A stretch of DNA of 64,000 bases from Candidatus Iainarchaeum sp. (GCA_043803765.1 JAZDJQ010000012.1:1165-65164), one strand, 5' to 3'. Positions 3,396 to 36,561 are shown, numbered from the stretch's first letter. Translations and numbers: made by a program. The notes: a model not told the origin generated them from the letters alone.

Positions 3396-3434
3396 ATGAA
3401 AAATTCCTTTGATAATGAATGAAAAATAATCCCT

Positions 3435-4964: not shown

Positions 4965-5178
4965 TAGGAATAAACATTTAGTATCCTATTCTTTATAAAA
5001 AAAAGCCCCCCTTCGAGCATTGTTCTATCAATGACTACTGCGCATAAAATAAATCATAGTAGAAGGCGGGCAAAGACGATGGATATTTCCATTAAAATTC
5101 TATCGTATAACAGGATACCTATGTCTTTTCGACAGATGATTATTCATCGTTTTTTTTTATGATCCTTTATTCCGACAT

Positions 5179-6233: not shown

Positions 6234-6246
6234 ACGGTTTTTCTCC

Positions 6247-12175: not shown

Positions 12176-13165
12176 ATGGTTTTCCCCTATTTTCCTAATC
12201 GTGCGCCAAAGCATGATGTTGAGTAAAATAACGATAATATATCCCCCCACTAAGTGGACAAGGGCGACACTAGCTGCAATCGTGGCATCCACCCCTATAA
12301 GTGCAAGGAGAGTGACAATGAATGACTCTCTTATTCCTACCCCATTAAAGGTGAAGGGCACAAATATGCTGATGGAGGAAAGGGCCACTATTCCTGTTAC
12401 GCTCCCCACATCCACGGAGTTCCCAAAATAGCTCAAGAGGATGATGAAGCTAATACCAACTACTAAAAATCGGACAAACGTGAGGAATAGATTTCCCGCG
12501 ATTGGAATGCCATCCTGCCTGTGAAGTATACTGGATTCAGTCCATGCACGATATCCTTTCCCCATTTTTGGGAAGTATTTTTCAAAGAGGCGGGAGAGAG
12601 ATGATTTCCACTTTCCCCCAATAAGAAGGATAAGCAATGCCACGCTAACCATGCCGGTTACTCCACTCAGGAATGTGTTCCATTCGGGGGGGAGAATTTG
12701 TCTAAAAACAAGAACCCAACCCATGACAAGGATGGCAACGAGGGTAAGGACTTTGGTCAGGAAAACCCCCGCGACGATCCTTTTGCGGTCTACCTGTATT
12801 ACTTCCGAAAATAATGCCAGAGAAAAGTCTCCTAGGCGCCCGGGCAGGAGCGACCCCACCGTCCAACTGACCAAATAGAAGGGCAGATAAGAGAAAAATG
12901 AGATAGGGCCATGGGGGATAAGCAATATCCACAATGCCAATGCATCCAACAGGATGGCGAGGCCCCCCAATCCCAAAACAATGATCCATATCTCCAAAGG
13001 CACTTGGCTCAGGAGAGCGGTTATTGATTCCAATCCAATCATAGATAGGAGAAAGAGGATGATGACAATGGATATTCCCGCCCAAATGGTTTGCTTAGAT
13101 GGCATGGTTACTCCATGAAAAGATTCGCTTATAATACCCCTAATTTTGTGTACAACCAAAGGCAC
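12164..13165 (-). CDS. Polytopic membrane protein (flippase-like / UPF0104-type TM domain often partnered with GT2 enzymes)
   Basis: 333 aa, about eight hydrophobic helices, no soluble domain. Sits between sugar-modifying genes. Confidence 0.4.
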   Translation of the reverse strand: MPLVVHKIRGIISESFHGVTMPSKQTIWAGISIVIILFLLSMIGLESITALLSQVPLEIWIIVLGLGGLAILLDALALWILLIPHGPISFFSYLPFYLVSWTVGSLLPGRLGDFSLALFSEVIQVDRKRIVAGVFLTKVLTLVAILVMGWVLVFRQILPPEWNTFLSGVTGMVSVALLILLIGGKWKSSLSRLFEKYFPKMGKGYRAWTESSILHRQDGIPIAGNLFLTFVRFLVVGISFIILLSYFGNSVDVGSVTGIVALSSISIFVPFTFNGVGIRESFIVTLLALIGVDATIAASVALVHLVGGYIIVILLNIMLWRTIRKIGENHSTK

Positions 13166-22154: not shown

Positions 22155-23579
22155 CTAGCGGAATCCTATTATCTTTCCTAGGAAACGTCCTATTTTCGTT
22201 AGGGGAGTTGGAGATCCGCGTGTCAAGGAGTAAGTCAACCGTTTGAGTCCAAGCAAATCTCCCCCAGCAAATGTATCGTTTTTTCCAAAATGAAAAGTTT
22301 TTTTTCCATGAATGTTCCACTCATTCCGTGTTTCCGTAAGGGTACCATCCTCACACGTGATGATAAATGCCGCGCTCGTGTTCGCACGGGGAATTTTTCC
22401 TTTCGTTTTTTTGGCGAGAAAACGCAATGCTTTATCGTTCCATCCAGCGACGGACAGATGGTCTTTCCAGCTCGCCACAAAAGGACTATTTTCATTCACG
22501 TCCAATCCAACGAAAGATGCAAATCCTCCAGTGGGTTGTTGGAGGGAAAGAAGGAATGTAGTTCCTTTTTTCACATTCGCTTGGAACCCTCCAATCTTTT
22601 TCAATGCACGGAGAACGTCTCCGGTTCCTGCTCCAAAGATGGGATACCGAATTTTTTTTCCATGATGATATCCAAAAGCAAATGACCCGTCCTCAAGTTG
22701 TTGGGAAATAATGAATCGGGCAGCCTTTTGGGCGGCATGTTGGAATCGTTTTTCTTTCGTGTGCGCGTATAGCAAAAACAAAGGAGAGACACAGCGAGCA
22801 GTGTAATAGGTGATAATTTGTTCCTTGTCATTGGCCTGGAAAATCCCCCCGGCAGTGGGTTTCTCATTGGATTGAAGGGAGAGAATCATCGCCCCTGCGT
22901 GAGTAGCATATTCAGCATATTTTTGATCACGAGTAGCATCGGTTAATAACAAGAGGGCTTCGCATGCGGTGGCAATCTTGTTCGGGACAAAAAGATTAGG
23001 GGCGTTATTACACTGCCCCTTCTCGTATTGTTGAAAGGTCTTCTTTTCATCATTCCAGAATCGGGCGATGAGCACACCGTCAATATTTTTTCTTGCGGCA
23101 TCGATGAAGGGCTGCCCTTTTCCTTTTTCCATTTTTTCAAGTCGCGTGCCCAATCGTAATAGCGCGATGTCCACTGCGCACTCGTGAATAATAGAAATGA
23201 ATCCCATGGAAGGGTTGGCTTCAAATGCCGAATCATTGAATGTCCCATTATCGCGTTGGTTTTTGAGGATGTATTCTCCACAAGAACGAGCATATTCGAG
23301 GTAATGAGAATTTTTCGTGTTTTTCTCCAACGAGAGAAGCCCCGTGATTAATCCTTCGTATCGCCAATCGGTTCCAGGTCCAATATAGGAGAGGGAATCA
23401 TCCCAATAATGTACGACCGGCCCACCAAATCCACGGGACTGTTCCACTGTCGTAAACCAATCAAGAAGATTCGATACCACTTGGTTCAATTCGATTTTTG
23501 TTTTAGTGCGCATCCGTTCAACCAATAATTCTCTCGCCCAACGCATTTTTATTCCATTGGATGCTGAGTCCATGAACAT
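22155..23579 (-). CDS. (alpha/alpha)6-toroid repeat protein (prenyltransferase/squalene-oxidase-like or N-acylglucosamine-2-epimerase-like fold)
   Basis: Repeated Q-x2-DG-[ST]-F motifs (QRDNGTF, QLEDGSFAF, QQPTGGFASF) typical of alpha-toroid repeat proteins. No clear signal peptide. Start uncertain. Confidence 0.35.
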   Translation of the reverse strand: MFMDSASNGIKMRWARELLVERMRTKTKIELNQVVSNLLDWFTTVEQSRGFGGPVVHYWDDSLSYIGPGTDWRYEGLITGLLSLEKNTKNSHYLEYARSCGEYILKNQRDNGTFNDSAFEANPSMGFISIIHECAVDIALLRLGTRLEKMEKGKGQPFIDAARKNIDGVLIARFWNDEKKTFQQYEKGQCNNAPNLFVPNKIATACEALLLLTDATRDQKYAEYATHAGAMILSLQSNEKPTAGGIFQANDKEQIITYYTARCVSPLFLLYAHTKEKRFQHAAQKAARFIISQQLEDGSFAFGYHHGKKIRYPIFGAGTGDVLRALKKIGGFQANVKKGTTFLLSLQQPTGGFASFVGLDVNENSPFVASWKDHLSVAGWNDKALRFLAKKTKGKIPRANTSAAFIITCEDGTLTETRNEWNIHGKKTFHFGKNDTFAGGDLLGLKRLTYSLTRGSPTPLTKIGRFLGKIIGFR

Positions 23580-24393
23580 GGTGTCTTTCGATTCTCACCG
23601 CGTAGATGAGCGGGGATACACCACCTCTTTGAAAGTGGGAAAACAAGAGATTCTCGCGAAGTGGGGTATTGAATTCTCGGATGGAAATGGTTTTTTCATC
23701 CATGGAAAAGAAGGAAATGCCCCAATGAGTCTCCTCTCTCTTTCAACGAATGAAAAGGAGACGCAGGGAGAAATGGTGGTACATCTCAAGACGACTGATT
23801 TGCGCATTTCCATGCACGAAAAATTTTTCCCGAAAAAAATTGTCCGCGAGTATGTATTTATTCCATCACACGACACGTTCATGCAGGACATCTCCATCAG
23901 TCAGGGATTCGTGAAGGGTATTTTTTCGTCCATGAAAATAGGAAGTGAAACTATTACCTTTACTGGAAAGGAACGCAATCACCAATTTAACGAGACAAAA
24001 GTAATATTGAATGGAAAAGAATTTGATCTTCGTATTGAGTATGAGAGTTCCCACTCCGGAACGGGGTTTTCTCCTATGATCTATGGGCGAACTTCCCCCA
24101 AGGATGGGTGGGTGGTGCATGCGCGTCTCTTCCCAAAAGTGGCTTCGAAAAAAGTCATTGTGTGGTGCAATCCCTTGTGGAACAAGAAAATTCCTTTCTC
24201 GGATATTCTTGTGCACATTAAACCATTAGTGGACTACTTGTGGAACATTGGGGAGCTCCCGGAGAGGGCGCACATTCGGATGGGTGGATTGACTGCCTAT
24301 GGTCTCGCGGAGGTGAAGAAAGACATTCCAATCTCTTTCACAGAGACGATAACTCTTATTCCAAAAAAGATTCAGGCGAAAAAGAAAAAATAA
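23506..24393 (+). CDS. Hypothetical protein
   Basis: 295-aa ORF with no recognisable motifs and a K-rich C-terminus. The 5' end overlaps the upstream minus-strand gene, so the real start is probably near 23572 (MNMVSF). Confidence 0.3.
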   Translation: MRIRSTNNSLAQRIFIPLDAESMNMVSFDSHRVDERGYTTSLKVGKQEILAKWGIEFSDGNGFFIHGKEGNAPMSLLSLSTNEKETQGEMVVHLKTTDLRISMHEKFFPKKIVREYVFIPSHDTFMQDISISQGFVKGIFSSMKIGSETITFTGKERNHQFNETKVILNGKEFDLRIEYESSHSGTGFSPMIYGRTSPKDGWVVHARLFPKVASKKVIVWCNPLWNKKIPFSDILVHIKPLVDYLWNIGELPERAHIRMGGLTAYGLAEVKKDIPISFTETITLIPKKIQAKKKK

Positions 24394-24405: not shown

Positions 24406-25863
24406 TTATGCGTTCTTGTTCTTGACCTTGATAGCATAGTCGATGATGGAGTAGGGCATAATGTTGTGAGCCAATAATGTGCCGATGACTCTTCCGGGAA
24501 ATCCATAGTCGCGCATCAATCGCCGCACATGGTATTTCTTCCGTATTTCCCTCTGGACTTTGGGGATCTTCTTCTCAATATATCGTCTCTGCTCCGTGGA
24601 AATACAAGGAGTGGAAATAATGATGTGATCGGCCTTCTGGTTCACATCGTTCAGGTAATCCGCGGGCTCGATGAGGAACAATCCTCTCTTCTTTGCCTGT
24701 TCGAATCCTTCCGTTCCGAAATAAGGCACAAAATTGTTGAAGGAGGCCCATCGAATAGGATACTTAAGAGCAAAGTTGAAAGTATCCTCAACATCTTGGA
24801 GTGTTTGGTCAGGGAATCCAACCATCATGTTGAGGTGGACATCGAATCCAACATCAATGGCATCCAGGATTGCCTTCTCAATCTGCTGGAGGGTTTCTCC
24901 CTTATGCAACAATTGGAGCATCTTCTCGTTTCCTACTTCGACTCCATAAATAATCGCTTCGAACTTGGCGTCCTTCATGGCCTGCAACACTTCTCTGTTC
25001 ACTCGATCCGCGCGCACGCCTTGAGGAACGTTAAGGATAAGTCCCTTGAAGTCTTCTTTCTGAATAAGATGGCAGAATTTGATAACTCTATTCATGTCTA
25101 GGGTAAAATTATCATCCAAATATTCAATGCGACGATATCCTTTCTCGTACCAATACTTAACCTCTTCGAGCATGTCTTCCGCGGAGCGGAATCGCCACCA
25201 GTTCCCGCTTACGACGGGAGCCGCACAAAAAATGCATTTTTCAGGGCAGCCGCGAGAAGAAAGGACGACCATTCCTGGGTACCAATACTTGGACAATTCG
25301 AACTTCTCATATTTGGGCCAAGGCAAGGATTGAATGTCTCTTCGAAAGAGTCGTTCGCCTGTGAACACAATGTTGCCTCCTTCCCGATAAATAAGTCCTT
25401 TGATCTCACTAATGGGTTTGTCTTGGCATAATTCAAGAAGAGTCTCTTCTCCCTCTTTGATGATTCCATAATCAATGGCTAAACACTCATTCAATACTTT
25501 TTCTTTCGCCGTAGAAATATGGGCGGCTCCAACTGCAATAGGAATGTGAGGAAGGGCGTCCTTAATTTGGGTGATAAGTGTATAGCTATCCTTGTACCGA
25601 TAGCTCTTCATTGCGATTCCAATGAGATTGGGTTTGAACGCTTCGACTTTCTTCAGAATGTCCTCGAATCCGTATCCGAGATTCATGTCCAATACATCGT
25701 ATTCCACTCCATTCATCTGGAGGAATTCCCCAATGTATCCCAATGCCAAATCGGGTACATCGCCGGGACGATACGATGATTTATGGTAGGCAACCGGAAT
25801 CAATAGTACTCGAGTATATCGCATAGAGATTTTGTCCTCTTTCGGTCCTTTTAATTTGTCCAC
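24406..25863 (-). CDS. Cobalamin-binding radical SAM protein (class B)
   Basis: B12-binding-like N-domain (LIGIAMKS...IPIAVGAAHIS) followed by CPEKCIFC. Third paralog in the cluster. Confidence 0.75.
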   Translation of the reverse strand: MDKLKGPKEDKISMRYTRVLLIPVAYHKSSYRPGDVPDLALGYIGEFLQMNGVEYDVLDMNLGYGFEDILKKVEAFKPNLIGIAMKSYRYKDSYTLITQIKDALPHIPIAVGAAHISTAKEKVLNECLAIDYGIIKEGEETLLELCQDKPISEIKGLIYREGGNIVFTGERLFRRDIQSLPWPKYEKFELSKYWYPGMVVLSSRGCPEKCIFCAAPVVSGNWWRFRSAEDMLEEVKYWYEKGYRRIEYLDDNFTLDMNRVIKFCHLIQKEDFKGLILNVPQGVRADRVNREVLQAMKDAKFEAIIYGVEVGNEKMLQLLHKGETLQQIEKAILDAIDVGFDVHLNMMVGFPDQTLQDVEDTFNFALKYPIRWASFNNFVPYFGTEGFEQAKKRGLFLIEPADYLNDVNQKADHIIISTPCISTEQRRYIEKKIPKVQREIRKKYHVRRLMRDYGFPGRVIGTLLAHNIMPYSIIDYAIKVKNKNA

Positions 25864-25869
25864 GCGACA

Positions 25870-26817
25870 TCAGTCCAATCCCATCTTATCTATGATTCCG
25901 GCGACCAAGGACTTAGGAGTATGGTTGATGTAGGTTCCTAGTTTCACTCCAGAGGAACAACCGATACATTGTTTGAGGGTCCGTTGGGTCATGGCAATTT
26001 GTTTTTGTTTATGGTCTTCAGATTCCCAAATCTTCTTGAATCCTTCCTCAAACACATTTCCAAACTTGGTATGCCCAAGTAGGTCAAAACAACAACTAGC
26101 CAATTCCCCATTCCAGTACACGACTGAATTATTATTGACCCATGAACAAGTGCCCAATTTGGTGTAATCGAATCGTCGCACAAACTCCTTGTTGGTAGAC
26201 TCCCATTGCTTGGCCACCCCACTCACGTCTCCCGCGACCCACGCGAAGTGCATGGCTTTGAGGAGGAGAGTATTGACGCCTATTTCCTTTGACCATTTTT
26301 TCATTTGTCCTATTTCATGCTCATTGTATTTATTCACCATGAATGAAACAATAATGTTGGGGTTGTTCTTTTCTAATCGCTTTTTCTCCGCACAAAGAGT
26401 TTCAATCCCTTTTTTGGCGAGCGAAAAATTATCCACTCCAATCACGGCAGGCTTCCGGTACTCTTCATAGGTTTCCCGGGTGAACCCATCAAAGGATAAT
26501 ACTGCATTGTCCAATCCTGCCTTGATGATGGAAGCTGCCTTTCCTTCCATGAGGGTCGCATTGCTCGTGATGCTTGTCCGTTTTCCTTTGCTCTTGGCAT
26601 AGGCGATGAATTCTTCTATTTTAGGATGAAGAAGTGGTTCAGCCGTGACCCCGAAATTGAGACTTTTCACGTAGGAGTCTGTCTCATCGATGAGTTTTTT
26701 GAATTTTTCTAAATCCATGAATCCCTTAGGTCGTTCGATGAATGGATTGTCGCATAGTGCACACTTTAGATTGCAGATGTTCGTGAGTTCGATGGATAAT
26801 TCGCTCGGATAGATCAT
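25870..26817 (-). CDS. Radical SAM protein with C-terminal SPASM/twitch-like Cys-rich domain
   Basis: LTNICNLKCALCDNP (CxxxCxxC) at the N-terminus. C-terminal cluster of Cys (CSWV...ASCCFDL...CIGCSSG). Confidence 0.65.
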   Translation of the reverse strand: MIYPSELSIELTNICNLKCALCDNPFIERPKGFMDLEKFKKLIDETDSYVKSLNFGVTAEPLLHPKIEEFIAYAKSKGKRTSITSNATLMEGKAASIIKAGLDNAVLSFDGFTRETYEEYRKPAVIGVDNFSLAKKGIETLCAEKKRLEKNNPNIIVSFMVNKYNEHEIGQMKKWSKEIGVNTLLLKAMHFAWVAGDVSGVAKQWESTNKEFVRRFDYTKLGTCSWVNNNSVVYWNGELASCCFDLLGHTKFGNVFEEGFKKIWESEDHKQKQIAMTQRTLKQCIGCSSGVKLGTYINHTPKSLVAGIIDKMGLD

Positions 26818-27530
26818 TTAATTACCCTCATAGCCAGATAGTTTCGGGAATCTAGTTCCTTAACAGTATATCCGAGACCCTTTAATGTCTTTTCGCACTC
26901 CAACTTCCGCTCTTCGGTGAGGGCTTCAAAGATAACATCCGGGCAATCTTTTTGGAGGGTGTGTAGGGCGCCCAGCAGGACGCGATTTTCGCTTCCTTCG
27001 CAGTCAATCTTGATGAGGGACACCTTCCCTAGAAGTTTTACTTCATCGAGTCGTTTTACATGAGCCGTGTCTTTTTGACGGAGGTCCAATCCAAGCATTC
27101 CTTTCGCGACATCCACTTGCGCGGGATCAATAGTCGTGGCTCCACTATATTGGGTATCCCGGTAGAGCGGAAAGAATCCTTCCCGATCCGAAAGGCCATA
27201 TTCATGAAGCGTGAATTGGTTCGCATATTTGGAATGTGTGAGATTCTTTCGTAGTAAGGCCAGAATGCGCGGGTTCACGTCGAAACCATGCGCGTGTCCA
27301 CCGGTTTGGTGAATAAAATAAATGCTAACTAATCCGTAGTGGCACCCAACATCCACGAGCAATCCTCCTTGGTATTTGGAAAAATCCACATCTTTTACCC
27401 ACATGGGCACGTGAAGATGCAAGGTCTCCCATTTTATTGGAAGTGTTATTTCTTCGCGGATATCCTTGATAGGTTGGAGAATCCGATCCCAGAGATTCAT
27501 TTCGATCCTCCTGTGGTGGATGGACGCCAA
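26814..27530 (-). CDS. FkbM-family SAM-dependent methyltransferase
   Basis: VDVGCHYGLVS motif I and IKIDCEGSE (the FkbM-type I-K-I-D-x-E-G-x-E signature). Confidence 0.6.
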   Translation of the reverse strand: MASIHHRRIEMNLWDRILQPIKDIREEITLPIKWETLHLHVPMWVKDVDFSKYQGGLLVDVGCHYGLVSIYFIHQTGGHAHGFDVNPRILALLRKNLTHSKYANQFTLHEYGLSDREGFFPLYRDTQYSGATTIDPAQVDVAKGMLGLDLRQKDTAHVKRLDEVKLLGKVSLIKIDCEGSENRVLLGALHTLQKDCPDVIFEALTEERKLECEKTLKGLGYTVKELDSRNYLAMRVIK

Positions 27531-28222
27531 AAATAATAGTGCTTGTAGTCTACTCCTTCGTGGGAGTATCCTTCTCGCGTGAATCGGTCGATGGTTTCTC
27601 TCTTCTCATCTTCTCCATATATCTCAGGATGGAGCTCTAAGAGGAATCGCGGATTGTGTTTGGTCCATTTAGAATCGGTAAATACTTGTTCCGCAAGTAT
27701 CTTTTCAGCTCCTTCAATATCAACAAAATAGAAAGAGGGAATCATCTTGGACTGTGCATGAATCCAATGCAAATCGTTTTTTTCCGAAAGAGGAGCGTGA
27801 ATCACTTGAAATCTTTCGAGAAGAATGGGGTTGAATTCCCGGAGCATGTGGAGAATAGTCACATAGTGCAGGTCCATTTCCACTCCCACAACTCTCCCAT
27901 CTTTCCCTGCAAGGTCAGCCATCTGGAGGGCAAATTCTCCATAGTTGGATCCCAAGTCCAATATCATTTCACCTGGGCGAATAACGGCATCCAATTTCGC
28001 AATGATAGCGGGCTCCCATGCATCGCGGGATCGTAGAAATGCGCGCCACCCTTCGCGGGGCTCAATGAATAATTGGCCATGTTTCACAGGAAAAAAACCC
28101 GCACTTTTTCGGGTCCACCACGGGGATTGGATGAGGAAAGAGTACCAGAGAGCCTTCCCATGAATCTTTTTCCACAAGGAAATAGCGGGAGAATGATTCA
28201 CCACCGGATGATCGTGATCCAT
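27497..28222 (-). CDS. FkbM-family SAM-dependent methyltransferase
   Basis: ILDLGSNYGEFALQ motif I and YFVDIEGAE (FkbM-like). Overlaps the neighbouring gene by 34 nt. Confidence 0.55.
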   Translation of the reverse strand: MDHDHPVVNHSPAISLWKKIHGKALWYSFLIQSPWWTRKSAGFFPVKHGQLFIEPREGWRAFLRSRDAWEPAIIAKLDAVIRPGEMILDLGSNYGEFALQMADLAGKDGRVVGVEMDLHYVTILHMLREFNPILLERFQVIHAPLSEKNDLHWIHAQSKMIPSFYFVDIEGAEKILAEQVFTDSKWTKHNPRFLLELHPEIYGEDEKRETIDRFTREGYSHEGVDYKHYYFWRPSTTGGSK

Positions 28223-28226
28223 ATTG

Positions 28227-29552
28227 TCATGCCCCCTTTGTCATACGAGAAAAGGAGTGGAGAATCTTTTTTAACAACTCTCGCTCGGATGGGGTGACCC
28301 ATTCAAAGTGGAATCGGTATCCGATTCGCCGAATAGCATAGATGATGAGCAAAATGGACAATGTCGCATACACGAACACATTGGAAGCCGCGGCTACCTG
28401 AACACCCTGCGTAGCTGCCCATGCATACATGACCAGTGCGATTCCCGCTGAGGGAAGGAACACTTCGAGAAATAATTGTTTGAGGTTTCCTCTCGAATAC
28501 GCATAGCCATGAAGGGGTCTCACGGCATTGAAGAGGGATACTCCCCCCACGAGGAGGAGGCCCAATCCATACACTTCAGCATGATTGGTGGGAGCGACGA
28601 AGGAAAGGACGTAGTCCCCCACCAAATAGTATCCTATAAGCTGCACGGTACTCACAAGGATGGAATATTTGATGATAGCATTCACGATGAAAAGATCATT
28701 CTCCTTTCCAGTAGTTCGCGCCAAGGCCACGATGCACATTTTTTGTAGGATTTGTGGAATGAAAATGAATACCCCTGCAAGGGTGAGAGCAATAGTATAG
28801 TTCCCCACCGCAAACGCGGTGGCGAAAAATCCGAGGAAGAAAATGTCCGCGCGATAAATCAATTGGGCCACCGATCCGATAAAGTGGTTCCAGAGGATAG
28901 AGGTGTTGAACACGGATTTGAAATCCTGCTTCAATACACTGGGAGAAAGCAGCAAAGGAAAGGGGAATGTTTTCAGGAAGCGATACACCCATGCCATGGA
29001 GAACAGTCCCGTGAGGACGGCGAGCAGGAGGAGATAAACTCCCAATTCCCGCTCGACGTATACGATTCCAAGTCCGCCAAGGAAGAGGAGTTGATAGGCG
29101 AGGTTCATCTTCAATATGTCTTTCTGCTTGAATTCTACGAAAAAGAATTCTTGGATGGATGCTTGAAGCGTGTTGAGATGATACACGAGTGCAGTGCCAA
29201 TGAGATAGATAAGCAGAAAATCCCCGCGAGAGGAATACAGCAGCCATCCCCCAACGAGCATGAGAGAAAAAACCAACATCGTGCGGACTGCCCAGAACGA
29301 TAGAAAACTTTCAGCGAATTTTTTTGGGTTTTTTTTGAATGAAACATAGTCTCGAAAGAGCAGCACTTCCGGGGTAATCATGAGAAAGGCAAACATGGCG
29401 ATAAATCCCCCGGTGATTCCAATGATGGCAATATCCTCACGTGGAAGAATACGACTTAGGAGAAAAAAGGAAAAGAGCCCCATAATCATAGACAATGTTT
29501 GGTTTGCCGTGCTCATGAGAGCTTGCTTGAATAGTTGTTCCTTGAGGACCAT
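28227..29552 (-). CDS. Wzx-like oligosaccharide flippase (MOP superfamily polysaccharide biosynthesis protein)
   Basis: 441 aa and about 12-14 TM helices through its whole length. Sits inside a glycan cluster next to the core-building GTs. Confidence 0.6.
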   Translation of the reverse strand: MVLKEQLFKQALMSTANQTLSMIMGLFSFFLLSRILPREDIAIIGITGGFIAMFAFLMITPEVLLFRDYVSFKKNPKKFAESFLSFWAVRTMLVFSLMLVGGWLLYSSRGDFLLIYLIGTALVYHLNTLQASIQEFFFVEFKQKDILKMNLAYQLLFLGGLGIVYVERELGVYLLLLAVLTGLFSMAWVYRFLKTFPFPLLLSPSVLKQDFKSVFNTSILWNHFIGSVAQLIYRADIFFLGFFATAFAVGNYTIALTLAGVFIFIPQILQKMCIVALARTTGKENDLFIVNAIIKYSILVSTVQLIGYYLVGDYVLSFVAPTNHAEVYGLGLLLVGGVSLFNAVRPLHGYAYSRGNLKQLFLEVFLPSAGIALVMYAWAATQGVQVAAASNVFVYATLSILLIIYAIRRIGYRFHFEWVTPSERELLKKILHSFSRMTKGA

Positions 29553-29561
29553 ACCATTACC

Positions 29562-31088
29562 TCACATCAACCAATGGCCATGTTTGAAGCTTCCGGCCAT
29601 GCGGGCAATCTTGACAGCGAAGGCATATCCCAATCCGACGAACACGAGAAAAGGAAAATAAATGAAGGATTTGCTCTCGAAAAACTTGAGACCGCGAGGA
29701 GAGGATAGTTCGAGCTCTCTTTCGGAATCCTTCCACAACCCCGTGACAACCTTGAAGTCTTCAACCGGATCTACAAAAAACTTCCATCTTACGTGGAGGA
29801 ATTCATCGCACAATTTAGTGGGGTGTTTCTTGTGCAATAGAACATCATTCATATGATACTTGAGTCGCTGGTGCGTGTATTTCAATATCGCCCGGACGCC
29901 CTTCGGGGATACCAGCGTGCGATCCTCCGTATACATTTTTGATGCGGTAGGTATTCGGACATATTCAAATCCTAATTCCATGATTCGAAAGGAAAGATCA
30001 GTATCCTCTCGGTAATAAAAAAAATCTTCATCGTATCCGCCAAGGTGATCCAATATCGTCTTTCGGAATCCCGTGCTGGTTCCACCATAATGTCCATATG
30101 CCGAAACCGCTCCTACGCATGGGGAATCAAATCCATTCACCAGTGTTTGCAACCAGTTTTTTTGGGGAACGCAGTCATGATCCATATTGATGACTACCTC
30201 ATGCTTCGCGGCATTGATCCCTGCGTTCCTCGCCTTGCATACGCCGGAGCGGGGTAAAAAAATGAGGGAGATGCGGGGATTTTTTTGGAAGTTTTTTTTC
30301 AACAAGAATGGAGTTTTCCCATCATAGCTTCCATCATCCACCACGATTATTTCGTATTTCCCCTTGAAGTCCTGACGGAGCATTCCATTCACGGCCTTGA
30401 TGAGAGGCTCTCCTCCATTAAGGGTGGCCACGACAATACTGGCCGTTTGAGGGGGCCAAGTCTTTTTCGTTTCGTTTTTTTTCAATCCCACTCCATGTTC
30501 CAAGGCAAGTCGGGTCAGAATATGGGAGATGTATCCATCTTCAACGTCTCCGCGCGCGGCGACCTTTATTTGAGCCTCATGGAGGGTGGTTTTCCATTCC
30601 TTGAGAGACTCTACTACCACCCCATCGCCGCGCGAGGCAATGGTATGGGCGAGTTCAAGCTGATGGTCATCCGTATGTTCTCCGTTCTCCCTGTGTCGGG
30701 GCATGATGATAAGGGGTTTCCCCATTTGCAGTGCGGTGCCAATGTTTCCCTCTCCAGCATGCGTGACAAATAGGCGGCACTCGGAGAGGTTTTTTTCAAA
30801 CGTGGGAATGCTCATGAATGAGGTGACTTTCATTTTGGGGTGAGTGAATGGTGTGTTCCCAGACTGCACCACGACTTCTTCCTGGATGATTTTTTGATCG
30901 ACAAGCATCGCGATTTCATTCAACAATCGGTAGAAGGGTTGAGGATGGGTTCCCACGGAGACAAAAATCATGATTGGTTCCTCGCAAAGATGGATCCGGC
31001 ATACACGCCGGAGGGGTAATATTTTTTGAGGCTTGGCCACTGGTATAGTACGCGATCGGCAAACAGGGAAATGATTCTCCCGCTCCAA
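29562..31088 (-). CDS. Bifunctional Alg13-like (GT28 C-terminal domain) :: GT2 glycosyltransferase fusion
   Basis: Alg13/MurG-C-like MIFVSVGT...THAGEGNIGTALQMGKPLIIMPR, followed after a linker by GT2 IVVATLN...IIVVDDGSYDG...DHDCVP. The probable start is the MIFVSVGT methionine near 30974; the first 38 codons of the ORF would otherwise overlap the Alg14-like gene. Confidence 0.65.
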   Translation of the reverse strand: MERENHFPVCRSRTIPVAKPQKILPLRRVCRIHLCEEPIMIFVSVGTHPQPFYRLLNEIAMLVDQKIIQEEVVVQSGNTPFTHPKMKVTSFMSIPTFEKNLSECRLFVTHAGEGNIGTALQMGKPLIIMPRHRENGEHTDDHQLELAHTIASRGDGVVVESLKEWKTTLHEAQIKVAARGDVEDGYISHILTRLALEHGVGLKKNETKKTWPPQTASIVVATLNGGEPLIKAVNGMLRQDFKGKYEIIVVDDGSYDGKTPFLLKKNFQKNPRISLIFLPRSGVCKARNAGINAAKHEVVINMDHDCVPQKNWLQTLVNGFDSPCVGAVSAYGHYGGTSTGFRKTILDHLGGYDEDFFYYREDTDLSFRIMELGFEYVRIPTASKMYTEDRTLVSPKGVRAILKYTHQRLKYHMNDVLLHKKHPTKLCDEFLHVRWKFFVDPVEDFKVVTGLWKDSERELELSSPRGLKFFESKSFIYFPFLVFVGLGYAFAVKIARMAGSFKHGHWLM

Positions 31089-31426
31089 CTCGGAGTGTAG
31101 GGTCGGCAGTAGCTCTCAATGAATATGACAGGAACTCCCCGCAGCTTGGCGGCAAGGCATACGGGGACCGTCACATCGGCTCCGGTAGACACTACCATGC
31201 GAGGCTTGACCTCATCCACAATGGAAAGGGCACGGATGAATGCACGAATGGTAGTGATGGGATTCCGCGCAGGGCGAGTGATGAAATACACGGTTTCTTT
31301 TTCAGCCAATGAGATGGTGTCCGGTCGTTCGAACGTGATGAAGCAGTGGGGTGCTTTTTCATAGAAGGATTTCAATTGCCTCATCTCAGTGAGGTGCCCC
31401 CCGGCGGAGCAGGTAAGCATAATCAT
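30968..31426 (-). CDS. Alg14-like glycosyltransferase membrane-anchor/acceptor subunit
   Basis: MIMLTCSAGGHLTEM...VVSTGADVTVPVCLAAKLRGVPVIFIESYCRP matches the Alg14 family pattern. 152 aa, immediately upstream of the Alg13-like fusion. Confidence 0.65.
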   Translation of the reverse strand: MIMLTCSAGGHLTEMRQLKSFYEKAPHCFITFERPDTISLAEKETVYFITRPARNPITTIRAFIRALSIVDEVKPRMVVSTGADVTVPVCLAAKLRGVPVIFIESYCRPYTPSWSGRIISLFADRVLYQWPSLKKYYPSGVYAGSIFARNQS

Positions 31427-31429
31427 GCG

Positions 31430-32542
31430 TCATGTACCCCCATACAATGCAATGGCTTGCGTATGGTTGAGCCAAAAAAGAAGGAGGGTTATAACGATGA
31501 CCACGACTTGCATCCCAAGGATAATCAACACCACCTGCTTCTCGGTGAATCGTCCCATGCGCATGACGACATGAGTCAGACTGCCTATTTTCTCAGGGCT
31601 CTTGAGGATGCCATCCGATTGGATAATGCCAAAGCTCTGAGCCTGCATTTTCGTGCGACCCTTGAGGATAAGCTCGACGAAATAGAGGCCAAAAATCATG
31701 ATTCCTATTTTTTCCATGTTCCCAATCACGCACGCGGAGGCAATAGCGGCGCCCATCATGAGGGTGAATGAGTCTCCGGGAAATATTTTAGCCGGGGTCC
31801 AATTGTAGACCAAGAATGCGAGAACGGCTCCAATGAGCCCGACCATGATAATGGCGACCTCAATGCGACCCAATACCAATGCGACAATTAGCACGGCGAA
31901 GGCATTAAGCAGTCCCATCCCTCCTTCCAATCCATTCAATCCAGCCAGCATATTGGTGGCGTTGCTTGCTCCCGTGACCGCAATAGGAACCAACATGAGT
32001 GCGTATATAATTCCAAAGTTCATGAATCCCAAAAAGGGAATATCCACTCCCGTGTTCCCAATCGTTTGCGGTAATACCATTAGGGGAAATGCGGCAAAAA
32101 TGGGGAACAGGGCGTGCTGGTATTGCCGTATCCCTTTCGTCCACCCAATCACATCATCCACCATTCCAATGAGCCCAACCATAATGATGGTGAGCAAGGC
32201 TGCGAGCACAGACAACAAGTCGATATCCTGGAAAAGGTCAAAGTATGAATGAAATGCGAGCGCAATCATAATGGAGAAGACGAAAGAAAGAAGAACGATA
32301 ACCCCGCCCATCCCTGCTACGACATGACTTCCTTCCATTTTGTTGAAGTCATTCCACACGATTTTCTGCAGGTGCATCCTCCTGATAAAAAAGGGAAAAG
32401 TAGAATGAGCCACAATGAAGGAAATTGCGGCAATCGAGAGAAAATTGAATGGATAGATGTTCATCCATGCGAATGACAATGCGAGAAAAAAGAAAACGAG
32501 AATGGGAATTTTTTTCATCATGGGAATCATCCACTCATACAA
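31430..32542 (-). CDS. aglH: UDP-GlcNAc:polyprenol-phosphate GlcNAc-1-phosphate transferase (MraY/WecA/GPT family, archaeal AglH-like)
   Basis: Ten or more TM helices, VDDV (DDxxD-like) motif and ATNMLAGLNGLEGGMG (NxxNxxDGxDGL-type) motif. Confidence 0.75.
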   Translation of the reverse strand: MYEWMIPMMKKIPILVFFFLALSFAWMNIYPFNFLSIAAISFIVAHSTFPFFIRRMHLQKIVWNDFNKMEGSHVVAGMGGVIVLLSFVFSIMIALAFHSYFDLFQDIDLLSVLAALLTIIMVGLIGMVDDVIGWTKGIRQYQHALFPIFAAFPLMVLPQTIGNTGVDIPFLGFMNFGIIYALMLVPIAVTGASNATNMLAGLNGLEGGMGLLNAFAVLIVALVLGRIEVAIIMVGLIGAVLAFLVYNWTPAKIFPGDSFTLMMGAAIASACVIGNMEKIGIMIFGLYFVELILKGRTKMQAQSFGIIQSDGILKSPEKIGSLTHVVMRMGRFTEKQVVLIILGMQVVVIVITLLLFWLNHTQAIALYGGT

Positions 32543-32605
32543 GAGGAAGAATATTCAAAAACGATTCTCGGTGGCTATTAAAGCGCACGTGGTGCAACTC
32601 TCGAA

Positions 32606-34921
32606 TCACTCGGTGTTGGTGTCCAAGATGTTGGCATCGGCAACACCTGCGTTCGCATCCACAATAATCGTATCACCTTCCACACTCCCCCCGTCCCGTA
32701 GAAGAATAGCTTTCGGATTAAACCCCCAGATGCGAACCCCCCCAGTATTCGAGTAGAGAGCAGGGAACGTCTCTTCTAAAGTTGGATCATCGAACCATAA
32801 TCGCACGAGCATGGTAGAATTGGATTTCGTCGTGAACACATACAAGCGGCTCATGGCCTTGTCCCGATATAAGTGAAGCGGGGAACCTCCTTGAAGCAGG
32901 GTGGGTTGTCCATTCCAGACGGTAGAAAATGCTTCCATCTGGGCAGGAGTAAAAGTGTTGTCGCCACACTTGTACGAGACTTCCTTCGTGAGGGTTGTCT
33001 CTTCTCTCGAACAGAAAAGCATGGATCCTCCGAATTCCATAATTCGAGGATCATTAGCCATGATCACATTATATGCATAGAATCCAAGATTGGTCTGCTT
33101 GGTCAAAAGGTCATCCCCAAAAATGAGATGGGTCGATCCATACTTTGTCAACAACCCCACAGCCTCATCCATGTTATCCGTAATAAGAAATAGAGCCACG
33201 TCAGCGGATGCTTTCAAATCAGTATTCCGATTGTCGACAATCACTCCCCGCTGAGCCAGAAATGTAATCCAATGCCCCTCATCCCACCAGTTGAAGAATT
33301 TAGCATCCGGGGGGAGATGTTCATCGGACCAAAATAGGGCAGTCTTCCATCCCCAGGAGGACTCGATGTTGGGAGTATTCTCTTCCACAAAAAAGATTCC
33401 GGCCGCCAATCCGAAGAGCAATGAAAAACCAATTGCCGCAATGATAATCTTCTGAGTCCCAACGCTCCGTTTCTCCATGGAACGGTGGGTTAGATGCAAT
33501 ACGACTGCTCCCATGAGAGCGAGAGGCAATCCCCAATAAAACGTGAATTTAAGTTTTCCCCACGCGAGAATGAACGCAATGACAATCCACACGAGCGGGA
33601 TGACCAACTGGTGGTGGGATTGGGGCCGCTTCCATAACAGATAGACGCAGGAGGGAATCCCCAACAAAGCAAAAACGACGAGCATACTATACTTGTTCCC
33701 GAAATAATTGCTCCCCTGACTCTCTTCACCAATAGTGGCTCCCAGCACTCCTCCTCCTGTGAGAGTATAGTTGAATAGTACAACAAAAATAGGGATGAAC
33801 AGCAATAGCAGGATTGACAATACATAGAGTCCATTCACTGCTTTCTGCCACCTATCATCCTTGCGTGAGAACCGCTCGCAAACGGCGAAGAAACCCACGG
33901 CTGCAAGTATTAAGATGATAGTGAAATGCCACGAGAGTTCAATCCCAATGAGGCGCAGTCCCAGATTGGATGCGATTTGGTCCATCCAGAAAGTTCCCGT
34001 TTGTATGGTAGAGATGATCACGAACGGAATGAATGCGGCCAGCCATACGAGACCGAAATGCCTCGCTTCTGCGTGTTCATTGCGTGCGAGGAAAGAGAGA
34101 AACCCCACTGCTCCAATCCCCATGAGAATCGGAACTAATTGATTCGAACCGGGCCAGGACAATACCATCCCCCCAAAACATATTCCTGCGGCCACGCCGA
34201 ATCCGATACGACGCTTCAATTTCGTTTCATTATACGCGGCTTTGACGAAGAAGAACAATCCAAAGACCATCCATAGGAAGCCGAACGAGTCGTCCTCGAA
34301 GAATCCCCCCATCGTGCGATAAACAAAAGCGGGAACAACCGCGGCAAGAATCCCTGCGAATAGTCCCGTCGACCGTTCATATTTTCCATGAAACAATTCC
34401 TTTCCAAGAAAATACATCCCTACACACGCCAATGCTCCATATAATGCAGGGAGAATTTTTACCCACAGAATCCAATTCTCGAGTACATATTTTCCATTGA
34501 GTGTAAAAATCTTGTAAATCGCCGCAGAGACATACCAGAAGAAGGAAGGAGTATTGGTGAGCGTGGCCGCAGCCGCATTCTGGTAATAGGCGAGCGGATC
34601 AAATGCAGGCGCGGGCAACCCTTGGAGGATGTAGGACACCATGCGCGCATGCCAGTATGAGTCAAACTCAAAAAAGAGTTCAAACCGCATCAAGTGGGCG
34701 CGGACAATGAATCCTAAAACGAAAACAAGTCCAACAAACAAACTTTCCTTGGAAAGAATAATGCGTTTCAGACGCTCAACAATTGTATTAGGAGAATGAT
34801 GCGCAGAAGAAGCCGTTTTTTCTTCCATTAGAGGAATTCCCTCAGACGCGTGAGCAGTGAGAGTAGCATGCGCAGCGTGTTCTGCTTCCTGCACGTTTTC
34901 AAGCGAGGGTTCCATAATCAA
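32606..34921 (-). CDS. aglB: Oligosaccharyltransferase AglB/STT3
   Basis: 771 aa. N-terminal 13-TM region, then a soluble C-terminal domain with the WWDxG catalytic motif (WWDEGHW). Confidence 0.75.
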   Translation of the reverse strand: MIMEPSLENVQEAEHAAHATLTAHASEGIPLMEEKTASSAHHSPNTIVERLKRIILSKESLFVGLVFVLGFIVRAHLMRFELFFEFDSYWHARMVSYILQGLPAPAFDPLAYYQNAAAATLTNTPSFFWYVSAAIYKIFTLNGKYVLENWILWVKILPALYGALACVGMYFLGKELFHGKYERSTGLFAGILAAVVPAFVYRTMGGFFEDDSFGFLWMVFGLFFFVKAAYNETKLKRRIGFGVAAGICFGGMVLSWPGSNQLVPILMGIGAVGFLSFLARNEHAEARHFGLVWLAAFIPFVIISTIQTGTFWMDQIASNLGLRLIGIELSWHFTIILILAAVGFFAVCERFSRKDDRWQKAVNGLYVLSILLLLFIPIFVVLFNYTLTGGGVLGATIGEESQGSNYFGNKYSMLVVFALLGIPSCVYLLWKRPQSHHQLVIPLVWIVIAFILAWGKLKFTFYWGLPLALMGAVVLHLTHRSMEKRSVGTQKIIIAAIGFSLLFGLAAGIFFVEENTPNIESSWGWKTALFWSDEHLPPDAKFFNWWDEGHWITFLAQRGVIVDNRNTDLKASADVALFLITDNMDEAVGLLTKYGSTHLIFGDDLLTKQTNLGFYAYNVIMANDPRIMEFGGSMLFCSREETTLTKEVSYKCGDNTFTPAQMEAFSTVWNGQPTLLQGGSPLHLYRDKAMSRLYVFTTKSNSTMLVRLWFDDPTLEETFPALYSNTGGVRIWGFNPKAILLRDGGSVEGDTIIVDANAGVADANILDTNTE

Positions 34922-34954: not shown

Positions 34955-35200
34955 GGGCGGAAAAAAAGTAAAAGAATGAGTGTTGACAGCGCTGCCGCGG
35001 GCCGTTTTCGCCCGGCCGCACCGAAAAACGGGTACCATTGTATGGTACCCCTATCGAGGAAAAAAAGTAAAAGAATGAGTGTTGACAGCGTTGGTGCGGC
35101 TCCGAGGAAAACCCCAGCGCCACGAGCCACGGGTTCTCGTTTCACTTCCGGGTTCGAAATGGGTCCGGGTGGGGCCAAGTCCCTATGACTGTCAACAAGA
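34955..35200. repeat. Intergenic structured element: 31-bp perfect direct repeat x2 with nested hairpins and a distal inverted partner. Candidate ncRNA or recombination site
   Basis: aaaaaaagtaaaagaatgagtgttgacagcg occurs at about 34961-34991 and 35060-35090. Hairpins cgggc-N7-gcccg and gggtacc-N7-ggtaccc lie between the copies. gccgcacc (copy-1 unit) and ggtgcggc (copy-2 unit) are complementary. tgttgacag pairs with ctgtcaaca at about 35188-35196. A GGTTCGAAAT T-loop-like motif sits at about 35150 without a full cloverleaf. Confidence 0.3.
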
Positions 35201-35248: not shown

Positions 35249-35614
35249 TCATTCGTCGCCGATGGACATAATCTGAAAGCCGTATTTTTCTACCTCTTCC
35301 TTAGACCAAAAATTCTGTTGTTTGGTTTTACTAACCCATGTTATTTTTTTCCTGATAGAGCGGCCAGTGTATTGTTTTGTTTGAGGATTCCATTCTTCTA
35401 AAATAAGAACATCCCCCGGGTTGCACTCAAAATCGGCCAATCGAAGCTCAAACTTTTTTTGACCCAATGTAATCGCATCAAAAAATTGCGGCCAAGTTTT
35501 CTTATGAATTTCTTTGCGTAGCATTTTTTCACCAAGTATTTTTACAAAACAAAAAGGCGATGTGAAACAACTTTTCCCCAGGATTTTTGCAATAAAGCAA
35601 AAAGGCCGAATCAC
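35249..35614 (-). CDS. DUF3850/ASCH-like PUA-fold small protein
   Basis: KTWPQFFDAITLGQKKFELRLADFECNPGDVLILEEWNP...YTGR resembles DUF3850/ASCH domains. The ORF-track start is GTG; the probable real start is the ATG at about 35524 (MLRKEIHKK), giving about 91 aa. Confidence 0.5.
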   Translation of the reverse strand: MIRPFCFIAKILGKSCFTSPFCFVKILGEKMLRKEIHKKTWPQFFDAITLGQKKFELRLADFECNPGDVLILEEWNPQTKQYTGRSIRKKITWVSKTKQQNFWSKEEVEKYGFQIMSIGDE

Positions 35615-36561
35615 AGCAACTCGTCTTCCTCTTCTTTCGCATCGTCTTCTTCATCCTCGTCATCGTCTTCGCCTTTCACTTTCTTTTTTTTCGGCGGGAT
35701 TTTGACGGGGGCTTTGCGGTTTTTTCCTTTGATGGGAGAAAGGTCGATCTCATCTTCCTCTTCTTCGTCTTCATCAGGCAGGGGAAGTTCCTCTTCATTC
35801 TCGTTTTCTTCTGCTTCGTGTACCCGCCCGTGTGTTGGAATATTTTGTTTGACGTGCGTCGGTTTCACCGGCACGACAGGAATTTCTTCTTCATCCTCTT
35901 CGTCTTCTAAATCCTCATCATCTTCTACAACCATGGGAGTGGTTTTCTTTTTTGTTGCACTTCCGCTCGTAAGTCCGCGTACCAAATCATCGGCTGTTTC
36001 AAGTCCGCGAATCATTTCTTTTTCATTTTTTGCTCCAGCGCAAATGACTTTTCCGTTTTTGAAAAGCAACATGGTGAGTTTAGGGTCATCCAATCGTAAG
36101 ATTGCACCCGGAAATTGTTCGGGTTCGTATTCCACATTGTCTAATTGCATGGCGGTGGCAAACAAATCCAAGTTTTGGTGCAAATTTCCTGTTGCCACCA
36201 GATTCACAACATCGTATTCAATCTTTTTCAGAATTTTGACAGTGGGTTGTATTTCATTAATCATTTTGTTTACTTTTTTTATTGCCACATCAATCTGGCT
36301 TTGGGCGCTGGCTCCCGAGCAGATGATTTTTCCGTTTTTGAATAACAGCATGGACACTTTGGGCTCTTTCATTTTGAGAATGGCCCCTGGAAACTGTTCG
36401 GGCTCATACTCAATGTTGGGGATGGACATGGCTAAATTGTACAAGTCTAAGTTGGCGTTCAGTCCACCACTCGCAACCAAGTTCACGATGGCATAGTCAA
36501 TCGTTCTTCCCTTGTGGTCAAAGGAATGTTGTTCAAATACTTGTCCGGAACCCTCACTCAT
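35611..36561 (-). CDS. tbp: TATA-box binding protein with about 110-aa charged C-terminal extension
   Basis: Two TBP repeats (VNLVASGGLNANLDLYNLAM...EYEPEQFPGAILKM / VNLVATGNLHQNLDLFATAM...EYEPEQFPGAILRL) followed by a D/E-rich and K-rich tail (DDEDLEDEEDEEE...KKKKVKGEDDDEDEEDDAKEEEDELL). Confidence 0.85.
   Translation of the reverse strand: MSEGSGQVFEQHSFDHKGRTIDYAIVNLVASGGLNANLDLYNLAMSIPNIEYEPEQFPGAILKMKEPKVSMLLFKNGKIICSGASAQSQIDVAIKKVNKMINEIQPTVKILKKIEYDVVNLVATGNLHQNLDLFATAMQLDNVEYEPEQFPGAILRLDDPKLTMLLFKNGKVICAGAKNEKEMIRGLETADDLVRGLTSGSATKKKTTPMVVEDDEDLEDEEDEEEIPVVPVKPTHVKQNIPTHGRVHEAEENENEEELPLPDEDEEEEDEIDLSPIKGKNRKAPVKIPPKKKKVKGEDDDEDEEDDAKEEEDELL

Follow-up and report, generated by a model that had tools for sequence, protein, structure and literature searches.

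The origin of the eukaryotic complex that initiates N-glycosylation, which consists of Alg7 and the split glycosyltransferase (GT) Alg13/14, is debated. In one scenario, a bacterial EpsE/F origin of Alg13/14 is favoured and the archaeal split homologs are regarded as rare transfers (Lombard, 2016); in another, the ancestry is archaeal, from within Asgard (Meyer et al., 2022). In the latter study, eukaryotic Alg13/14 emerges as sister to Thor/Odin Asgard, and the split homologs of DPANN archaea sit among EpsE/EpsF sequences, interspersed with bacteria (Meyer et al., 2022). MurG, Alg13/14 and Agl24 act on N-acetylhexosamine (HexNAc)-pyrophosphate (PP)-lipid acceptors and all use UDP-N-acetylglucosamine (UDP-GlcNAc), and the characterised EpsE/F enzymes add glucose (Glc) or galactose (Gal) to Glc-PP-undecaprenol (Meyer et al., 2022). 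Here we analyse a block of five minus-strand genes between positions 28,227 and 34,921 of a 64,000-nucleotide stretch of DNA (hereafter, the window) from Candidatus Iainarchaeum sp. (GCA_043803765.1, JAZDJQ010000012.1:1165-65164). These genes encode an AglB-type oligosaccharyltransferase (OST), a polyprenol-phosphate HexNAc-1-phosphate transferase (GPT), counterparts of Alg14 and Alg13, the latter fused to a family 2 glycosyltransferase (GT2), and a candidate flippase. The block is likely to be the N-glycosylation initiation-and-transfer operon of this Iainarchaeial (Diapherotrites, DPANN) archaeon.

Gene order in the window and across genomes

The window belongs to a metagenome-assembled genome of Candidatus Diapherotrites (Iainarchaeia, DPANN), as indicated by exact NCBI matches (MFH0970358-63), and the genes for a TATA-binding protein (TBP) and 5S rRNA just upstream of the block identify the organism as an archaeon. 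All five open reading frames (ORFs) of the initial annotation are in their places, with slight corrections of the starts, and scans against Pfam and NCBIfam bear out the domain content proposed for them, except that the candidate flippase has no direct match. The aglB gene (32606..34915) begins in the NCBI record with the ATG at 34915 (769 amino acids (aa)), and the ORF reaches TTG 34921. It is followed by the GPT gene (31430..32521), deposited with ATG 32521 (363 aa) and also compatible, from ATG 32464, with the homolog lengths of ~345 aa, and by the gene for the Alg14-like protein (30968..31426; 152 aa). The Alg13::GT2 gene, initially placed at 29562-31088, is indeed present, but the proposed start, TTG 31088, had to be replaced by ATG 30971, which yields a fusion of 469 aa identical to MFH0970360.1. 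A polytopic membrane protein of 441 aa (28227..29552), the candidate flippase, completes the block. The intergenic gaps from AglB through GPT, the Alg14-like protein, Alg13::GT2 and the candidate flippase to the methyltransferase gene that comes next are 84, 3, -4, 9 and 4 nucleotides (nt), respectively, and the ATG of the fusion overlaps the stop codon of the Alg14-like gene as ATGA, which bears out the tight linkage and translational coupling proposed at the outset. In the NCBI record, AglB is named ‘STT3 domain-containing protein’ (MFH0970363.1) and the Alg14-like protein ‘PssD/Cps14F family polysaccharide biosynthesis glycosyltransferase’; GPT and the 441-aa membrane protein are labelled ‘hypothetical’.

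The same arrangement was sought in one genome per GTDB species, using an alignment of the Alg14-like family, which yielded 80 loci, and tblastn with the window proteins for the neighbours. Almost all of these loci come from Iainarchaeum/Diapherotrites, and a few from Aenigmarchaeota and Micrarchaeota. An Alg13-like gene lies directly downstream of the Alg14-like gene in 76 of the 80, the four loci without such a call being three contig ends and one case (L023) that was lost to the overlap filter. GPT is encoded within 6 kb of the Alg14-like gene in 65 loci (54 co-directional, mostly no more than ~100 nt upstream, and 11 divergent together with AglB), and AglB, usually immediately adjacent to GPT, within the same distance in 61; most of the loci that seem to lack AglB are cut off by a contig end, with under 2.4 kb of sequence left upstream. 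A GT2 ortholog with an identity of 40% or more comes right after the Alg13-like gene in 43 loci; it is fused in frame in 14, which represent the clade nearest to the window. Recurrence of the order AglB-GPT-Alg14-Alg13(-GT2) in 80 species-level genomes excludes a chance neighbourhood, and on the strength of this synteny we read the block as the N-glycan initiation and transfer module of the lineage. The idea of a conserved initiation module that is linked to the OST and follows the logic of Alg7 and then Alg13/14 is thus upheld by both the family assignments and the 80-genome synteny.

Five contigs with the AglB-GPT-Alg14-Alg13 order (L008, L059, L063, L069 and L071) come from GTDB representative genomes that carry the label Thaumarchaeota, Chloroflexi/Chloroflexota or Falkowbacteria; these are probably mis-binned DPANN contigs.

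Protein families and the predicted pathway

The first enzyme of the predicted pathway, GPT, belongs to the Glycos_transf_4 family (PF00953, 116.5 bits) of the PNPT superfamily. Of the motifs that define AglH/Alg7, namely DxxK, DDxx(D/N), NxxNxxxGxxGLxxG and (F)xGD (PMC5222938), the counterparts in GPT are D58FNK, D122D123VIG, N187ATNMLAGLNGLEGG and KIFPGD250, none of which varies among 12 orthologs; the fifth position of the second motif is G instead of D/N. The assignment to the Alg7 type held up against the alternative of an MraY-like enzyme: the family profile built from the 12 orthologs scores 122 bits (E 3e-34) with DPAGT1 compared to 68 bits with the best MraY, and the sequence taken singly has human DPAGT1 as its nearest solved relative (60 bits, E 2e-15), ahead of MraY (41 bits); the score against the WecA hidden Markov model is 16.8 bits. 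Since the profile matches DPAGT1 far better than MraY, a HexNAc-PP-polyprenol primer is favoured as the product expected from family knowledge, the predicted sugar most probably being GlcNAc. The UDP-GlcNAc recognition loop of DPAGT1, which we take to be the Arg-His-Arg region in the last cytoplasmic loop, falls in a part that HMMER left unaligned with GPT. The GPT family carries a conserved segment, E283...K287(A/G)R...SFG...DGxL, the equivalence of which to the GlcNAc loop of DPAGT1 is uncertain. In step 1, GPT would accordingly move HexNAc-1-phosphate, likely GlcNAc-1-phosphate, from the UDP-sugar to polyprenol/dolichol phosphate at the cytoplasmic face of the membrane, giving HexNAc-PP-lipid; the reaction follows from the family assignment, and the sugar is that expected for the family.

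At the other end of the pathway, AglB would transfer the finished glycan to Asn (step 5). This protein matches STT3 (PF02516) with 64.1 bits (cutoff 24.5), has an N-terminal half with multiple transmembrane (TM) segments (~13 hydrophobic segments between aa 54 and 511), and contains the motifs WWDEG at aa 543 (the catalytic WWDxG) and, as acidic DxD/ExD-type motifs of the first external loops, EFDSYWH at aa 83 and FFEDDSF at aa 205, all of which align with those of STT3A; the mammalian STT3A is also the closest solved relative (41 bits). With 121.7 bits against a cutoff of 450, AglB falls below the threshold for the archaeosortase-A-associated subfamily TIGR04154.

Between these two enzymes, the second sugar would be added by a split GT-B glycosyltransferase. 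The Alg14-like protein corresponds to the N-terminal, acceptor-binding half of the EpsE-PssD type; it matches PF08660 with 64.5 bits, with only the profile positions 75-170 of 171 aligned, and NCBIfam NF041549 (PssD/Cps14F) with 132.8 bits, above the equivalog cutoff of 110 and with residues 3-146 covering the profile in full (1-151/151). Within the family, C6SAGGH11 and E104-S105 are invariant; a GGH loop and a downstream Glu are common to MurG, Alg14 and Agl24 (Meyer et al., 2022). The AlphaFold2 (AF2) model of this protein (pLDDT 93) has the acceptor-binding N-domain of MurG as its best fold match (TMq 0.75). The Alg13-like half, of the EpsF-PssE type, comprises aa 1-165 of the fusion (30477..30971) and represents the C-terminal, nucleotide-sugar-binding part: it matches Glyco_tran_28_C (PF04101) with 41.9 bits, stays below the equivalog cutoff of NCBIfam NF041548 (PssE/Cps14G; 92.5 vs 120 bits), contains the motifs THAGEGNIG at aa 70 and DDHQLE at aa 101, and yields an AF2 model (pLDDT 92.7) whose fold corresponds to that of the nucleotide-sugar domains found C-terminally in GT-B enzymes. 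These structure searches against the PDB confirm the fold of both halves and do not resolve subfamilies; no solved Alg14 or Alg13/14 complex was found in the PDB, and the matches were to MurG and epimerases only.

The initial annotation had taken the two halves to be eukaryote-like and called for their phylogenetic analysis, which does not support this point. The references were yeast Alg13 (from PDB 2KS6), yeast Alg14, human ALG14, human ALG13 and Escherichia coli MurG, the last four confirmed by exact look-up, along with the experimentally studied EpsE and EpsF of L. lactis pNZ4000, taken from the plasmid record. In BLASTP comparisons, the Alg14-like protein scores 101 bits with L. plantarum PssD, 80 bits with L. 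lactis EpsE, 73 bits with human ALG14 (28% over 179 columns) and 34 bits with yeast Alg14, and the Alg13-like half scores 77-87 bits with three EpsF/PssE proteins of Firmicutes, 50-59 bits with two alphaproteobacterial proteins, 38 bits with human ALG13 and 33 bits with yeast Alg13. Taken over both halves, the bacterial relatives from Firmicutes show 30-37% identity (77-101 bits), and the two alphaproteobacterial ones reach 50-66 bits. In neighbour-joining (NJ) trees (MurG root, 200 bootstraps), with a thin sampling that lacks Asgard, Agl24, Cps14F/G and PssD/E references, both halves of the DPANN enzymes group with bacterial EpsE/F-PssD/E (94-95% bootstrap), and the yeast and human proteins form their own clade (96-100%). 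The same grouping has been reported previously (Lombard, 2016; Meyer et al., 2022), and the NCBIfam PssD assignment points in the same direction.

This placement bears directly on the identity of the second sugar. Because the conserved partners of the split enzyme are a DPAGT1-like GPT and AglB, its acceptor must be HexNAc-PP-lipid. In step 2, the Alg14-like and Alg13-like proteins would form a MurG-like GT-B enzyme and add a second sugar to this acceptor, through a beta-1,4 linkage by analogy; the fold and the GGH/E motifs are observed, and complex formation, linkage and donor are predictions. If GPT makes GlcNAc-PP-dolichol and the pair adds beta-1,4-GlcNAc, the outcome would be GlcNAc2-PP-Dol of the eukaryotic/Sulfolobus type. 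This possibility is in accord with the use of UDP-GlcNAc by all three characterised members of the MurG/Alg13-14/Agl24 assemblage that act on HexNAc-PP-lipid (Meyer et al., 2022), with a primer enzyme that is a DPAGT1-like GPT and not the PHPT of the exopolysaccharide (EPS) loci, with the nearly equal scores of the Alg14-like protein against human ALG14 and L. lactis EpsE (73 and 80 bits), and with the automated JGI annotation, which names the homologs ALG13 and beta-1,4-N-acetylglucosaminyltransferase. It sits less well with the donor-binding Alg13-like half, which is much nearer to EpsF/PssE (77-87 bits) than to yeast and human Alg13 (33-38 bits) and branches with the bacterial proteins in the tree (94% bootstrap), with the Alg14-like score above the PssD equivalog cutoff, and with the lability of the donor within the EpsE/F clade (Glc, Gal or glucuronic acid (GlcA)), where it is not readable from sequence.

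In an alternative reading, EpsE/F-like chemistry operates within N-glycosylation: the pair would add Glc, Gal or GlcA to HexNAc-PP-lipid, and the core would not be chitobiose. In favour of this reading, both halves group with PssD/E-EpsE/F by tree and by profile, the characterised members of this group transfer Glc or Gal, the PssD/E-type and WelK enzymes are glucuronosyltransferases by NCBIfam annotation, and a UDP-glucose dehydrogenase is encoded in two related sugar islands (L004 and L005). However, all characterised EpsE/F-type enzymes act on PHPT-made Glc-PP-undecaprenol, whereas the partner here is a GPT, and no UDP-glucose dehydrogenase was found within the window. The donor of step 2 cannot be inferred from sequence because the donor-site residues of MurG are not conserved in Agl24 or Alg13/14, though all use UDP-GlcNAc (Meyer et al., 2022), and because the DHQ-type motif is common to the Alg13-like half of the window, the Glc-transferring EpsF and, by inspection, yeast and human Alg13. 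Prediction of the donor from the MurG donor-site residues was rejected for the same lack of conservation. A pathway specific to UDP-GlcNAc or UDP-GlcA, sought in the island as another potential hint, did not turn up; the nucleotide-sugar genes there comprise only a dTDP-glucose route and generic epimerases. On balance, GlcNAc, and with it a chitobiose core, is tentatively the single most likely option; a hexose or hexuronic acid, in line with the EpsE/F-PssD/E clade that includes these proteins, is nearly as likely, and the remaining probability falls to other second sugars. Thus, as regards the GlcNAc-GlcNAc core proposed originally, the pathway logic and the type of GPT stand, and GlcNAc as the second sugar is an analogy rather than a result.

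The third step can be predicted from the fusion itself. The GT2 (GT-A, inverting) domain, aa ~176-469 (29562..30446), matches Glycos_transf_2 (PF00535, 91.3 bits), contains the motifs VVDDGS at aa 210, DHD at aa 264 and YREDTD at aa 320, and has chondroitin synthase and an archaeal GT2 (6YV7) as its best solved relatives. It exists as a stand-alone protein (~295 aa, 50-57% identity) in many other Diapherotrites and in Micrarchaeota, and the fusion is found in ~34 protein clusters, all from DPANN. A single hydrophobic helix at the C-terminus (aa 435-453, nt 29613-29669) is kept in 27 of 31 fused and 82 of 83 stand-alone orthologs. The GGH of the Alg14-like protein begins at residue 9 and the protein has no TM helix; an N-terminal TM anchor was not found in any of 115 Alg14-like homologs, none of which has more than 30 residues before GGH. 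In eukaryotes, Alg14 is anchored by an N-terminal TM helix and recruits Alg13 to the membrane. Given that the GT2 fused to the Alg13-like half has a tail anchor, it is the donor-binding half that appears to be tethered in the fused clade, and the predicted membrane attachment is the reverse of the eukaryotic arrangement. The fusion and the conserved tail anchor strongly suggest that the GT2 performs the next sugar step; in step 3, it would add the next sugar while its C-terminal helix holds the soluble two-part enzyme at the membrane. Stand-alone orthologs of this GT2 are also encoded in two sugar islands without Alg13/14 (L004 and L005).

In step 4, the glycan may be extended by the glycosyltransferases of the surrounding island, after which the MOP-like protein might flip the lipid-linked product. 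The 441-aa protein has ~10-12 hydrophobic segments, and its family is small, with no more than 208 representatives found among 1.84 billion at E<=1e-3. Neither Pfam nor NCBIfam gave a direct match even at E<=10, and a profile search of the PDB returned nothing useful. Among 46 distant homologs, Polysacc_synt was matched in 9, Polysacc_synt_3 in 3 and MatE in 3 (at most 15 distinct proteins), and an hhalign comparison of the close-family profile with an annotated oligosaccharide flippase gave a probability of 64.6% (E 6e-5, 290 columns). The protein is encoded directly downstream of the fusion also in the nearest relatives of the window (L002, L006 and L037). The initial designation of this protein as Wzx is plausible, although the evidence for a flippase is indirect and weak; a divergent, Wzx-like member of the MOP superfamily is our best guess. 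On a plasmid of Agrobacterium sp. RAC06 (L087), positions 3112-5245 encode a PssD-like protein, a PssE-like protein and an ‘oligosaccharide flippase’ of 440 aa, which is the order of the Alg14-like, Alg13-like and MOP-like genes in the window; a UDP-glucose dehydrogenase and an epimerase precede them.

Several observations weigh against the assignment of the block to N-glycan initiation and transfer as a whole. The linkage is strong but not absolute, because in CP064981, a complete Ca. Iainarchaeum genome, the Alg14/fusion pair lies apart from both AglB and GPT. The affinity of both halves to bacterial EpsE/F-PssD/E leaves the eukaryote-like chemistry of step 2 unproven, and the assignment of the candidate flippase, with no direct family match, is indirect. 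Furthermore, Euryarchaeota build N-glycans on dolichyl phosphate (Dol-P) and not on dolichyl pyrophosphate (Dol-PP), and the AglB of DPANN archaea resembles the euryarchaeal type (Meyer et al., 2022), and an AglJ-like Dol-P-hexose synthase encoded in the window could prime a different route. In view of this euryarchaeal resemblance, a GPT-primed, pyrophosphate-linked pathway in DPANN, predicted here from synteny only, would be notable. In another scheme, GPT, the Alg14-like protein, Alg13::GT2 and the MOP-like protein would make a surface polysaccharide or glycolipid that is not linked to protein (Wzx-type), with AglB adjacent only through the clustering of surface-glycan genes and the N-glycan primed elsewhere, for example, by the AglJ-like synthase. 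The 35-kb mixed sugar island that makes up this part of the window, the AglJ-like GT2 within it, the separation of the pair from AglB in CP064981 and the origin of the family name PssD/Cps14F in exopolysaccharide and capsule systems would all fit such a scheme. It is nevertheless improbable, considering that AglB is encoded no more than 6 kb away in 61 of 80 species, usually next to GPT, and that genes for a Wzy polymerase, Wzz or a tyrosine kinase, such as those of pNZ4000, were not detected in the window. Initiation and transfer of N-glycans is therefore retained as the preferred function of the block.

The surrounding sugar island

The block forms one end of a sugar island (window positions 1-34.9 kb) that encodes GT4 and GT2 glycosyltransferases, a dTDP-glucose 4,6-dehydratase, an RmlA-like transferase, methyltransferases and B12-binding radical SAM enzymes. 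Four co-directional genes, identified by Pfam/NCBIfam matches, directly follow the candidate flippase on the minus strand: two methyltransferase-like ORFs (27497-28222 and 26814-27530), a radical SAM/SPASM enzyme (25870-26817) and a B12-binding radical SAM enzyme (24406-25863), with gaps of 4, -34, -4 and 6 nt counted from the flippase gene onwards. A role of these four genes (24406..28222) in glycan tailoring is probable, and they may belong to the operon. Altogether, three B12-binding radical SAM enzymes (14-1234(+), 3435-4964(-) and 24406-25863(-)) and the single radical SAM/SPASM enzyme (25870-26817(-)) are encoded among glycosyltransferase and methyltransferase genes. In L001, L002 and L003, the fusion gene is likewise followed by orthologs of the B12-binding enzymes, which suggests that sugars of the glycan are C-methylated or otherwise radical-modified; methyltransferase genes also come after the block in L002 and L003.

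A minus-strand string of genes at 1249-7967 encodes an epimerase/dehydratase, an RmlA-like NTP transferase, a methyltransferase, a B12-binding radical SAM enzyme, a GT2 and a GT4. The island is modular and rearranged because this string comes right after the fusion in L003 and L001 and is located ~22 kb away from it here. The dTDP-glucose 4,6-dehydratase (9176-10159(-)), a genuine one with 466 bits against TIGR01181 (cutoff 365), and the RmlA-like glucose-1-phosphate thymidylyltransferase (6247-7011(-)) indicate that the island probably supplies a dTDP-6-deoxyhexose. The AglJ-like Dol-P-hexose synthase (a GT2; TIGR04182, 142 bits, below the cutoff) and a nearby protein of the PF03706 family (LPG_synthase_TM, ‘flippase-like’) are encoded at 10150-11247(+) and 12164-13165(-), respectively; PF03706 proteins recur in related sugar islands (L001, L004 and L005), and it is possible that the two proteins are a Dol-P-sugar supply and flipping pair for extracytoplasmic extension of the glycan. 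Three ORFs, namely 17643-19121(+) (492 aa), 23506-24393(+) (295 aa) and 62048-63928(-) (626 aa), have no meaningful Pfam match at E<=10. The first of these lies inside the island, has multiple TM segments and matches only PspC (E 8.4); it could be a polymerase, a ligase or a second flippase.

On the other side of the block, a stand-alone 5S rRNA gene (35080-35196(-)) separates aglB from the TBP gene (35611-36561(-)). The 316-aa product of the latter extends well past the two TBP repeats, with matches ending at ~aa 190, and the TBP-aglB neighbourhood is kept in L002. Farther away, at 53150-60382(-), the window encodes a predicted surface protein of 2410 aa that has CarboxypepD_reg and Big_1 domains and a TM segment at the N-terminus. 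It contains no more than 19 N-X-S/T sequons and could serve as a substrate of AglB.

Implications and comparison with known systems

Two elements are new here, and the novelty is modest: the AglB-GPT-Alg14-Alg13 synteny, which extends throughout the Iainarchaeia lineage, and the fusion of the Alg13-like half to a tail-anchored GT2, which would join the enzymes of steps 2 and 3. In at least 80 mostly Iainarchaeial species, split genes of the Alg14/Alg13 type have a fixed, syntenic place in the AglB pathway, where they are coupled to a DPAGT1-like GPT. The system thus offers a concrete prokaryotic setting for two questions, namely which sugar is added to HexNAc-PP-lipid and how an Alg14 that lacks a TM segment is recruited to the membrane, and the fusion to a tail-anchored GT2 predicts the enzyme of step 3. 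In the most far-reaching version, the split, eukaryote-style Alg14/Alg13 pair of Iainarchaeia is firmly tied to the OST and to a GPT of the Alg7 type, makes a Dol-PP-GlcNAc2 core and, in one subclade, has evolved into a tail-anchored step-2/step-3 enzyme. This combination appears doubtful, yet if it were true, the view of archaeal split EpsE/F-like genes as ‘few and scattered’ products of horizontal gene transfer would be contradicted, and the lineage would become a prokaryotic model of, or a possible donor for, the eukaryotic initiation complex. Should the donor not be GlcNAc, this would be merely another variant among the very diverse archaeal N-glycan cores.

The block shares with the eukaryotic system, in which Alg7 (DPAGT1) and Alg13/Alg14 act together with STT3, the subfamily of its GPT, an STT3-type OST, the order of the reactions and the division of the GT-B enzyme into two corresponding halves, which carry GGH and DHQ-type motifs. 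It differs in that the halves group with bacterial EpsE/F, the Alg14-like protein lacks the N-terminal anchor, a GT2 with a tail anchor is fused to the Alg13-like half, and all the genes form one operon. The pathway of Sulfolobus acidocaldarius, in which AglH and Agl24 produce chitobiose (Meyer et al., 2017, 2022), likewise combines an archaeal GPT with a subsequent MurG-like GT-B that acts on HexNAc-PP-dolichol and carries GGH. Agl24, however, is a single fused Alg14-13 polypeptide that belongs to a separate archaeal (Crenarchaeota/Bathyarchaeota) clade (Meyer et al., 2022), whereas the enzyme described here is split (two genes in 76 of the 80 genomes), falls in the EpsE/F-like clade and is encoded beside aglB.

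In sequence, the closest relatives of the two halves are the bacterial starter systems EpsD-EpsE/EpsF (L. lactis pNZ4000), Cps14E-F/G and PssA-PssD/E. These share with the window the split itself, the ATGA-type coupling, an Alg14-like half without a TM segment and the order of primer enzyme, Alg14-like protein, Alg13-like protein and next glycosyltransferase; the GT2 fusion was not seen among the sampled bacterial EPS loci. They differ in the primer enzyme, which is a PHPT (Bac_transf) ‘sugar transferase’ that makes Glc-PP-undecaprenol instead of a DPAGT1-like GPT, and in their context, which provides genes for Wzz, a tyrosine kinase and a polymerase but lacks an OST, in contrast to the adjacent AglB of the window. 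Finally, the MraY-MurG pair, which converts lipid I to lipid II, resembles the predicted pathway in that, after a PNPT-family primer enzyme, a GT-B of the GT28 type attaches a sugar to HexNAc-PP-lipid in beta-1,4 linkage. The model of the Alg14-like protein also superposes on the N-domain of MurG. In sequence, however, MurG is only a distant relative (20-32 bits), it consists of a single polypeptide, and the profile of GPT scores higher with DPAGT1 than with MraY.

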